A stretch of DNA of 64,000 bases from Escherichia coli (GTDB taxonomy: Bacteria > Pseudomonadota > Gammaproteobacteria > Enterobacterales > Enterobacteriaceae). A program made the position numbers. Positions 30,001 through 33,000 of this stretch are shown in pieces. Each line of letters opens with the position of its first letter. Position 1 is the first letter of the stretch. The stretch lies in NCBI RefSeq assembly GCF_017348835.2, contig NZ_CP071375.1, one strand, 5' to 3'.

Positions 30001-33000
30001 TTTATTTTGTGGATGATCGGCGGCTGGCTGGTGCTGGTGGTTTTGCTGGCGCTGCCGTTATTGGTGATCCCCGGCCTGCTGGTGCAACGCCCGCTGGCGC
30101 GGCTGGCGAACGAAGGAATGCGCGAGTCAGCGGTACGCAACGCTACGCTTGTCGAAGCCGTGCAGTCGATTGAAGACATTAAGCTGCTGCGCGCTGAACA
30201 GCGTTTTCAGAATCAGTGGAACCACACCAATGACGTGGCCTCGTCCATCAGCATGAAGCAACGTTTTCTCACCGGGCTACTGCTCACCTGGACGCAGGAA
30301 GTACAGTCCATCGTCTACGTGGTGGTGCTGTTGGTGGGCTGCTTTATGGTGATGAACGGCGACATGACCACCGGCGCACTGGTCGGGACGACGATCCTGG
30401 CTTCGCGCACCATCGCGCCGCTGTCGCAGATATCCGGCGTGCTCTCGCGCTGGCAGCAGGCGAAAGTAGCGCGTAATGGCCTTGATGAACTGATGAAGCG
30501 CCCGGTGGATCAGCCGGAACACGGCAAACTGGTGCATAAAGCGGTGTTGCACGGTAATTATCAGTTCAGCAACGCTGTCTTTTATTACGACGAAGAAGAG
30601 AAAATTGCCGATGTGGCGATCGGTAAACTCAACATTCAGGCCGGAGAGAAAATCGCCATTCTCGGGCGCAACGGCGCGGGTAAATCAACGCTACTGCAAA
30701 TGCTCGCCGGAATGCGTATCGCCCAGCAGGGGCAGGTGCTGCTGGATAACATCAGCATCGGGCAGCTTGATCCGGCGGATCTGCGCCGCGACATGGGGCT
30801 GCTGAGCCAGACCGGGCGACTGTTCTTCGGCTCGCTGCGGGAAAACCTGACGATGGGGATGCCGGAGGCCAGTGATGAAGATATCGAACGCGCATTAACC
30901 CTCAGCGGGGCGCTGCCCTTTGTGCAGAAGCAGAAAAACGGCCTCAACTACATGATTCAGGAAGGGGGATTTGGCCTCTCTGGCGGCCAGCGGCAAACGC
31001 TGCTGCTGGCGCGGCTACTCATCTCTCAACCCAATATCGTGCTGCTTGATGAACCCAGCGCCTCGCTGGACGAAATGGCAGAAGCGCATTTAATCGAACA
31101 ACTGAAACAGTGGATTGGGCATCGCACGCTGGTCATCGCCACTCACCGCACGGCGATGCTGCAACTGGTGGACCGCATTATCGTGATGGATCAGGGGCGG
31201 ATTGTGATGGATGGCGCGAAAGAGGCCATTTTGCGTGAACAGAGCGAACCCACGGCGCGACGGGTGGTGTTGCAGGAGAAGAATAAGGGGTCTGCTGCAT
31301 GAACGGACAACTGCAATACAACCGTGGCCTGACTGAACCCCGCCTGCCGCGTTCGGCGCTGGCGGTACGTGTTATCGCTGTGATGCTGTTCTGTTTTCTC
31401 GGCTGGGCGTGGTACTTCCAGCTTGATGAAGTCACCACCGGCAGCGGCACGGTAGAACCTTCCGGGCGCGAACAGGTGGTGCAGTCGCTGGAAGGCGGAA
31501 TTCTGTATCATCTGAACGTGAAAGTTGGCGATATAGTTGAACAGGGCCAGCCGCTGGCGCAGCTTAACCGCACTAAAACGGAATCCGACGTTCAGGAAGC
31601 GATGTCGCGGTTGTATGCGGCGCTGGCAACCTCGGCGCGGCTGCGGGCGGAAGTGAGCAATAAACCGCTGGTCTTCCCTGACGAACTGAATAAATTCCCC
31701 GAACTTATCGAGTCGGAAACGGCGTTGTACAACACTCGCCGCGACGGGTTGAACAAAGCCACCACCGGGCTGACGCAGGGGATTAGCCTGGTCAACCGCG
31801 AACTGGCGATGACCCAGCCGCTGGTAAAACAGGGAGCGGCGAGCAGCGTCGAAGTGCTGCGCCTGCAACGCCAGGCCAATGAACTGGAAAACAAACTCAG
31901 CGACGTGCGCACGCAATACTACGTTCAGGCGCGCGAAGAGTTAGCAAAAGCCAATGCGGAAGTGGAAACCCAGCGTTCGGTGATCCGTGGACGGGAAGAC
32001 TCTCTCACCAGGCTCAACTTTACCGCGCCGGTGCGAGGCATTGTTCAGGATATTGATGTCACCACGGTTGGCGGCGTCATCGCCCCCGGTGGTAAACTGA
32101 TGACCATCGTGCCGCTGGATGAGCAACTGCTGATTGAGGCAAAAATCTCCCCGCGCGATGTGGCGTTTATCCATCCGGGGCAAAAATCGCTGGTAAAAAT
32201 AACTGCCTACGATTACTCCATCTACGGCGGCCTGCCGGGAGAAGTAGCGGTGATATCACCAGACACCGTGCAGGATGAAGTGCGGCGCGATGTTTATTAC
32301 TATCGGGTGTACATTCGCACTTTCAGCAACCATCTGGAAAACAAAAGCAAACAGCAGTTTCCGATATTTCCCGGTATGGTGGCGACGGTCGATATCCGCA
32401 CCGGCAAAAAAAGCGTGCTGGATTATCTGTTGAAACCCTTTAATAAAGCACAGGAGGCGTTGCGCGAACGATGAACATTAGCGATGTAGCAAAAATTACC
32501 GGCCTGACCAGCAAAGCCATTCGCTTCTATGAAGAGAAGGGGCTGGTGACGCCGCCGATGCGCAGCGAAAATGGTTATCGAACCTACACGCAGCAGCATC
32601 TCAACGAATTGACCTTACTGCGCCAGGCGCGCCAGGTGGGCTTTAACCTGGAAGAGAGCGGCGAGCTGGTGAATCTGTTTAACGACCCGCAGCGTCACAG
32701 TGCCGACGTCAAACGTCGCACGCTGGAGAAGGTGGCGGAGATTGAACGGCATATCGAAGAACTGCAATCTATGCGCAACCAGCTACTGGCGCTGGCGAAT
32801 GCCTGCCCCGGTGATGACAGCGCCGACTGCCCGATTATCGAAAATCTCTCCGGCTGCTGTCATCATCGGGCGGGGTGAAAATCAGTTAATCCCCGTTTGC
32901 ACCGAAAGAATATGCTGCAAACTTTCTACCATAATGCGCCCCGACTGAAATAAGCCTTCCTGGATTTCGTTGTTAACATTCACAGCGTGAACCAGGGAGG

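Follow-up and report, generated by a model that had tools for sequence, protein, structure and literature searches.

The cueR control region of Escherichia coli is probably the tail of a secretion adaptor gene of O-island 28

In a stretch of 64,000 nucleotides (nt) from the Escherichia coli contig NZ_CP071375.1 (assembly GCF_017348835.2), which as a whole is called the window below, the gene encoding the copper regulator CueR begins within the stop codon of hlyD28, the HlyD-family adaptor gene of the type I secretion locus known as O-island 28. It is probable that cueR is transcribed independently of this locus and that its whole 5′ control region in Escherichia is the tail of the adaptor gene. 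The arrangement in E. coli K-12, which lacks the island, appears from sequence comparison to be a deletion derivative of the island-bearing state and not the native state. The two haplotypes share the translation signals of cueR and differ in its transcription inputs, namely the promoter set and the terminator of ybaT. The elements concerned are the following (window coordinates).

31299..32474, + strand, HlyD-family type I secretion adaptor gene (hlyD28, Z0635, O-island 28), 391 amino acids (aa)
32471..32878, + strand, cueR, Cu(I)-responsive MerR-family regulator, 135 aa
32471..32474, + strand, ATGA stop/start overlap (cueR ATG and HlyD TGA), read from the sequence
32452..32457, + strand, AGGAGG, sole Shine-Dalgarno-like element of cueR; its last G is separated from the ATG by 13 nt
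32450..32470, + strand, 21-nt block ACAGGAGGCGTTGCGCGAACG, the cueR translation-initiation region, invariant in the Escherichia loci
32375..32470, + strand, last 96 bp of the HlyD gene, kept in K-12-type genomes as a frameshifted remnant
5153..32374, no strand assigned, 27.2-kb segment absent from K-12-type genomes (blastn against K-12)
5136..5158, + strand, intrinsic terminator after ybaT (9-bp stem, T-rich tail, −16.3 kcal/mol, z = −6.2)
32311, + strand, homologue of the cueR start at −160 in strain EDL933, to which the window is identical from −224 to −103
32432, + strand, homologue of the main K-12 cueR start (−39; MG1655 513178; relative read score 100)
2682..2706, no strand assigned, CueR box and −35 element of the copA promoter, which stays beside copA

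The overlap reported in the preliminary description of this DNA is confirmed by the sequence: the HlyD gene ends in a TGA (32472..32474) within an ATGA whose ATG, beginning at 32471, is the cueR start, and AGGAGG lies 13 nt before it (window 32440..32500, ...aaagcacAGGAGGcgttgcgcgaacgATGAacattagc). The two open reading frames (ORFs) therefore overlap on the same strand in the manner of translationally coupled pairs. AGGAGG is encoded by the HlyD Gln-Glu-Ala codons CAG-GAG-GCG and is unchanged in K-12, in four other Escherichia species-level genomes and in E. albertii. The block 32450..32470, in which it lies, shows zero differences across every Escherichia locus examined, including that of E. 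albertii, where the remainder of the HlyD remnant has decayed to ~67% identity. Mismatches in E. albertii amount to 0/21 within the block and 11/33 just upstream of it (Fisher p = 0.004), and K-12 and EDL933 differ at no position from −47 to −1 and at 5 of the 37 aligned positions from −84 to −48 (p = 0.014), the boundaries of both tests having been picked after the data were seen. This constraint would fit selection on the initiation of cueR translation after loss of the HlyD reading frame. An ATGA overlap is common on its own, as five adjacent gene pairs within this window have one, and it is the conservation of the preceding 21 bases that exceeds chance. The position of the cueR start codon is the same as in 80 species-level cueR loci. 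A hairpin across the 13-nt spacer (CGUU...AACG), which would draw the Shine-Dalgarno sequence toward the AUG, was considered and dropped, its folding being no better than that of shuffled sequences; the initiation region and the −39, −86 and longer leaders gave z values of −0.01 to +1.1 against shuffled sequences, none of them significant. In K-12 (L001, 2540..2599), the reading frame closed by the TGA of the cueR overlap runs for 45 codons without another stop and contains GTG at −56 and TTG at −41, and this short upstream ORF could in principle be translated from the −86 transcript.

The preliminary description also took the native region upstream of cueR to be occupied by island coding sequence. 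The implied premise that strains such as K-12 keep this native region has to be abandoned, because the K-12 upstream region is itself the frameshifted last 96 bp of the HlyD gene. When window 31900..32900 was searched by megablast against 5426 complete E. coli genomes, the full HlyD-cueR junction was found in 959 (~18%), and essentially all other genomes match only from window 32375 on, a point 96 bp ahead of the cueR ATG. Among the island-positive strains, the pig isolate PE164 is 100% identical to this 1-kb segment. The comparison with strains lacking the island, which had been proposed as a check, thus finds in K-12-type genomes a remnant from 32375 onward carrying the identical AGGAGG and ATGA; the K-12 tail differs from the window by a 1-bp deletion and 5 substitutions. 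The Prokaryotic Genome Annotation Pipeline (PGAP) labels it a “frameshifted, incomplete” pseudogene terminating in the same ATGA, and the curated MG1655 record has no feature there. With these 96 bases retained in K-12, the overlap and the ribosome-binding site are common to all E. coli. The HlyD ORF matches the family profile TIGR01843 at 330.5 bits (cutoff 208.65), and its best stretch, residues 187-391, aligns to positions 219-422 of the 422 in the profile; as the protein aligns to the very end of the profile, the retained tail is real gene sequence.

At the other end, the K-12 counterparts of window 1..5152 and 32375..32878 adjoin, separated by a single base (blastn against 44 kb of K-12), and the missing segment, 5153..32374, holds the tolC28 promoter region, tolC28, the giant adhesin, the ABC exporter and the first 1076 bp of hlyD28. 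On its left side, the deletion cuts into the ybaT terminator, of which K-12 keeps the 5′ half only; the equivalent K-12 sequence folds no better than shuffled sequences, and no + strand terminator was detected there. A query spanning the K-12 joint matched over its length in 4458 of 5424 genomes (~82%), and the 4316 of these that share it at ≥99% identity argue for a single deletion event. As a separate observation, the 94.6% identity of cueR to K-12 compares with 97.6-98.4% for the flanking core genes (1..5152 and 35522..43948), and the distance is about the same as that to the cueR of E. whittamii (95.3%); the two cueR haplotypes look like an old polymorphism or the product of introgression.

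All statements made here on promoters combine published start-site maps with hexamers read by eye, and K-12 positions were converted by placing cueR at 513217 in the old coordinates and at 513993 in the new ones. The mapping of cueR start sites that had been proposed is available through these maps. In EDL933, the sole cueR-associated start found by Cappable-seq is 604687, which lies 160 nt before the ATG at 604847, within the HlyD gene, and was found in 8/8 conditions with relative read scores of 4.2-9.0. The earlier suggestion that a cueR promoter might lie in the 3′ end of the upstream gene is thereby borne out. A putative −10 element, TACTAT (4/6), is present at 32298..32303, that is, at −13..−8 of this start, without a pair of −35 and −10 hexamers spaced by 16-18 bp. 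In MG1655, Cappable-seq gives starts at −115, −86, −39 and −21 with read scores of 3.7, 49, 100 and 2 (Ettwiller 2016), and a second study gives −39 (sigma-70) together with −298, −292, −345 and −427 inside ybaT, also assigned to sigma-70 (Cho 2014). The K-12 start of Kim 2012 is −292, RegulonDB v10.5 gives cueR a 5′ untranslated region (5′ UTR) of 19 nt, and the main text of Mendoza-Vargas 2009 contains no cueR start. No start at −39 is reported for EDL933, so that the published sets of the two strains, −160 on the one side and −115, −86, −39 and −21 with the ybaT sites on the other, differ completely. The −160 promoter falls in the segment that K-12 has deleted, and the K-12 −86 start lies 7 nt downstream of a TATTAT hexamer straddling the deletion joint; the one other Escherichia species with the K-12 joint, Escherichia sp. 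MOD1-EC7003, has TACTAT at this position. Loss of the island plausibly changes cueR transcription. A published sigma-54 site lies inside ybaT in the sense orientation (K-12 512537, old numbering), 679 bp upstream of cueR, and the sigma-54 study reported no transcription from such sites; in island-positive strains it would be parted from cueR by the terminator and 27 kb. EDL933 also has an antisense start at 605353 (window ~32977, − strand), directed toward cueR.

The possibility that cueR is co-transcribed or translationally coupled with the secretion operon, likewise raised in the preliminary description, is unlikely to be the main route of its expression. RNA-seq of EDL933 in 11 conditions, with the bracketed numbers of the published table taken as normalised counts, gives 105-462 for tolC28, 0-8 for the distal adhesin, ABC and hlyD28 genes, and up to 29 for cueR, which thus exceeds the ABC and HlyD genes upstream of it and shows no correlation with tolC28. 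Given the low values of the distal island genes and a cueR level that does not follow tolC28, the island promoter would contribute little by read-through, at least in a strain with a stop in its adhesin gene. No terminator separates hlyD28 from cueR, and a common mRNA may exist; however, the −160 start lies inside hlyD28, and cueR RNA is above that of hlyD28 and hlyB28. Translational coupling is probably not essential, since K-12 has no HlyD ORF and yet has functional CueR. In K-12, deletion of rpoS lowers cueR ~2-fold and glsA-ybaT ~30-fold, which fits, without proving, the view that part of K-12 cueR transcription comes from upstream after loss of the terminator.

The arrangement that preceded these two haplotypes can be sought in cueR loci gathered from 80 species-level genomes, 75 of them of non-Escherichia species. 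In 42 of the 80 loci, copA is divergent from cueR and less than 200 bp away, the typical spacing outside Escherichia being ~108 bp. A CueR box lies directly before the cueR start in 39 loci, in the order operator (ACCTTCC-N7-GGAAGGT), GGGGGAAA, start codon, with the box ending ~15 bp before the start codon in 39-42 of the 75 non-Escherichia species. In Escherichia loci, homology to this intergenic region stops at the cueR start codon. The window accordingly contains no divergent pair with a shared box: copA ends at 2635 and cueR begins at 32471, while the box at 2682..2706 is followed by unrelated sequence and then glsA, which places the ancestral left breakpoint just past GGTCAAG. From these comparisons, the native upstream region of cueR would be the copA-cueR divergent intergenic region with its CueR box, and its loss would date to the ancestor of the sampled Escherichia. 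Both E. whittamii and Escherichia sp. E1V33 carry the island, and a divergent E. coli-like genome has it in degraded form; the K-12 joint is common to another Escherichia species; and E. albertii has a different, 186-bp gap with a 58-bp HlyD remnant only, at 79% identity. By this distribution, the HlyD-cueR junction would be older than the diversification of the sampled Escherichia, and the island would have been lost at least twice. Between E. whittamii and the window, the island genes share 92.8-93.0% identity, which is species-level divergence; the idea that the island passed horizontally between this species and E. coli in recent times was considered and set aside, the DNA identities of 92.8-95.3% being at species level. 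The copA-cueR intergenic region is also a recurrent site of rearrangement in the Enterobacteriaceae, other DNA being inserted there in ~33/75 non-Escherichia species. In three loci (L013, L029 and L041), the breakpoint lies within the CueR operator, and species of the Citrobacter freundii group have a TATAAT-containing sequence in place of the operator. The available part of the Kim 2012 supplements lists no cueR start site for Klebsiella, which has the ancestral arrangement.

The translation of cueR matches NF007590 at 308 bits (cutoff 244; aligned 1-135/135) and TIGR02044 at 206.6 bits (cutoff 147.4), and carries Cys at residues 112 and 120, which correspond to the two metal-binding cysteines in the C-terminal loop of E. 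coli CueR known from published structures. In DNA sequence, cueR is 100% identical to EDL933 and hlyD 98.1%. The neighbourhood of the HlyD gene contains an ABC exporter and a TolC-family protein with a giant Ig-like/BapA-related adhesin between them, and window 5462..32474 matches Z0608-Z0635 of enterohaemorrhagic E. coli (EHEC) O157:H7 EDL933 gene for gene; the PGAP annotation of EDL933 has the same arrangement, its adhesin being named siiEA and marked as a pseudogene. This identifies the island as O-island 28 of O157:H7, which encodes a type I secretion system and a giant adhesin. This locus (tolC28-rtxA28-rtxB28-hlyB28-hlyD28) has been described as an RstA/Ca2+-activated secretion and adhesin system and is regarded there as acquired, cueR never being mentioned (Gut Microbes 2025, PMC12758282). 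The genes preceding hlyD28 in the window are listed below.

131..2635, − strand, copA
2897..3829, + strand, glsA
3832..5124, + strand, ybaT
5462..6817, + strand, tolC28, TolC-family gene (TIGR01844, 416 bits)
6920..29136, + strand, giant adhesin, here in three ORFs
29140..31302, + strand, LssB-type ABC exporter (TIGR03375, 837.8 bits, cutoff 693.1)

From what is shown, namely the gene layout, the homologies, the joint left by the deletion and the start sites in the literature, the following order of events may be inferred. In the ancestral Enterobacteriaceae, copA and cueR would have been divergent and ~108 bp apart, with the CueR box and the GGGGGAAA Shine-Dalgarno sequence just before cueR. 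In the ancestor of the sampled Escherichia, glsA-ybaT and the O-island 28 locus would have come between the two genes, the right-hand junction of the rearrangement falling exactly at the cueR start, such that CGA-TGA of the HlyD gene overlaps the cueR ATG and its CAG-GAG-GCG became the only Shine-Dalgarno sequence. In island-positive strains, cueR would then be expressed mainly from a weak constitutive promoter in the HlyD gene (−160, 32311) and translated from its own AGGAGG, with little contribution from read-through of the RstA/Ca2+-controlled island promoter. In K-12-type strains (~82% of E. coli), one ancient 27.2-kb deletion would have removed the island together with the −160 promoter and spared the last 96 bp, leaving the Shine-Dalgarno sequence, the ATGA and the 5′ UTR intact. 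The same deletion would have halved the ybaT terminator and made a TATTAT −10 hexamer across the joint, and cueR of K-12 now starts at −39 and −86 and at the sites inside ybaT.

Several points weigh against this account. The −160 promoter has no recognisable −35 element, a consensus scan of 31200..33200 returned no + strand site upstream of cueR (nor did it in K-12), and the start comes from a single published dataset. The absence of −39 and −86 starts from EDL933 may reflect thresholds or growth conditions, read scores being incomparable between studies. The adhesin gene of EDL933 has an internal stop, so that polarity may depress read-through in this strain to a greater extent than where the gene is intact. 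With 13 nt separating the Shine-Dalgarno sequence from the ATG, the spacing is at the limit of what is functional, so that some coupling to upstream translation is possible. Finally, the identity of 94.6% in cueR against ~98% in its flanks means that the history may include introgression and not simple vertical loss.

Three other explanations have to be compared with independent transcription from the HlyD tail. If cueR were the last gene of the O-island 28 operon, transcribed from the RstA/Ca2+-activated promoter upstream of tolC28 and translated by re-initiation at the HlyD TGA, copper sensing would be tied to the adhesin. With an ATGA overlap, a terminator could not fit between the genes, and prediction over the 3′ part of the HlyD gene returned none on the + strand; the 13-nt spacing is suboptimal such that re-initiation could help, and the joint 3- to 5-fold drop of all five island genes in a delta-rstA mutant (PMC12758282) suggests one long transcript. 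We nevertheless consider it improbable in view of the steep fall in EDL933 from tolC28 to the distal genes and a cueR level that does not follow tolC28, the presence of the −160 start in every condition, and the 82% of E. coli that express cueR without an upstream HlyD ORF. Scarcely any weight is left for the idea, drawn from the preliminary description, that the island was acquired beside cueR and overwrote a native upstream region still present in K-12. Its absence from K-12, its presence in only ~18% of complete genomes and the published view of it as acquired would agree with this. However, K-12 has the frameshifted end of the HlyD gene upstream of cueR and half of a ybaT terminator that is whole in island strains; E. 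whittamii carries the island at species-level divergence; the remnant in E. albertii is an independent one; and, given the full-length match of HlyD to its family profile, a transfer of the 96-bp tail from K-12-type DNA into the HlyD gene is implausible.

A further explanation is that the overlap and the shared tail are neutral and that CueR levels are equal in both haplotypes, owing to redundant weak promoters and a small, constant need for the protein. CueR acts post-translationally through copper binding, such that its transcription need not be regulated, the mapped promoters are all weak or poor matches to the consensus, and ATGA overlaps are frequent in the window. On the contrary, the start sites of MG1655 and EDL933 have nothing in common, loss of the terminator ties K-12 cueR to the sigma-S- and acid-controlled glsA-ybaT (as the ~2-fold drop in the rpoS mutant may reflect), and the 21 nt before the ATG are under evident constraint; we regard neutrality as doubtful. 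It is also tempting to speculate, as a tentative possibility that falls short of an even chance, that loss of O-island 28 rewired cueR. Under this proposal, −160 was lost, −39 and −86 came into use, one −10 element arose from the joint, and destruction of the terminator placed cueR under the sigma-S-, acid- and copper-induced glsA-ybaT, such that K-12- and O157-type strains would differ in CueR dosage and in a copper-acid linkage. In that case, the 5.4% difference between the cueR alleles would go back to an ancient trans-species polymorphism or to an introgression, and delta-hlyD28 or delta-OI-28 mutants (OI-28 being O-island 28) of EHEC may be unintended cueR promoter mutants.

The kinds of feature seen here, an overlapping stop and start, an internal promoter and a deletion scar, are all known, and nothing is mechanistically new. 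The locus is the O-island 28 of PMC12758282, gene for gene, except that its adhesin is in three ORFs in the window; what the present analysis adds is that hlyD28 overlaps cueR, that a cueR promoter lies within the island gene and that K-12 keeps a remnant. Compared with the divergent copA-cueR pair of Salmonella and other Enterobacteriaceae (PMC1526738), the regulator and its target are the same and the box is kept at 2682..2706, whereas in Escherichia the two genes are split by 2-30 kb and cueR has no box, native Shine-Dalgarno sequence or native promoter. An insertion of ybaS-ybaT was noted, and a ybaS-ybaT-cueR operon predicted in K-12, by Permina et al. 2006 (PMC1526738); the HlyD remnant was not. 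Promoters inside upstream genes or at deletion joints have their counterparts in the O157 start within HlyD coding sequence and in the K-12 TATTAT that straddles the joint. What differs is that two haplotypes of one species use non-overlapping promoter sets with the same translation-initiation region. Four-nucleotide ATGA overlaps with translational coupling occur in operons, for example in trpE-trpD and trpB-trpA. The HlyD gene and cueR resemble such pairs in being same-strand genes that share an ATGA; by contrast, they are functionally unrelated, cueR has its own mapped promoter, and coupling is probably not required, as K-12 has lost the upstream ORF but not the overlap.

A literature search found no paper linking the HlyD tail, the K-12 remnant and the control of cueR. 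Nearly everything known about CueR, the primary cytoplasmic copper sensor of E. coli, was learned from K-12, whose cueR control region appears to be a scar and differs in promoter from that of O157-type strains; statements on cueR expression may therefore not carry between lineages. The view of O-island 28 as simply acquired would be corrected in that the K-12 state is probably a deletion. Moreover, in EHEC, the cueR promoter and possibly the ribosome-binding site can be lost when hlyD28 or all of the island is deleted, which may confound the adherence and colonisation phenotypes reported for such mutants. These observations imply that a conserved regulator can survive full replacement of its promoter, 5′ UTR and Shine-Dalgarno sequence, an instructive evolutionary history for an ordinary kind of feature.

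Within the island, the adhesin ORFs lie at 6920..24346, 24403..25731 and 25789..29136, the first in another frame than the last two, which share theirs; one frameshift and one in-frame stop are therefore implied. The EDL933 copy is a pseudogene with an internal stop and is ~2 kb shorter. The published RstA box, TAATTCAAATTACC, is found at window 5168..5181, 10 bp past the ybaT terminator, and the mapped start sites of tolC28 in EDL933 lie 144 and 126 nt before its start codon.

A second strain-variable segment, 32879..35521, follows directly after the cueR stop and contains a 67-aa ORF, a 140-aa lipoprotein, a 338-aa YadA-family adhesin and a 120-aa ORF. K-12 lacks this segment, and the stop codons of cueR and ybbJ abut there, such that cueR and the 96-bp HlyD tail form a 504-bp conserved islet flanked by two variable blocks. 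At the right edge of the second segment, short repeats at 35386..35522 match the ybaQ-copA repeat cluster of K-12 at 83-87% and look like REP-type elements. Farther downstream, the rhsD-ybbC region of K-12 (~7.3 kb, L003 16838..24130) is absent, and the window has ~0.5 kb (43949..44466) in its place.

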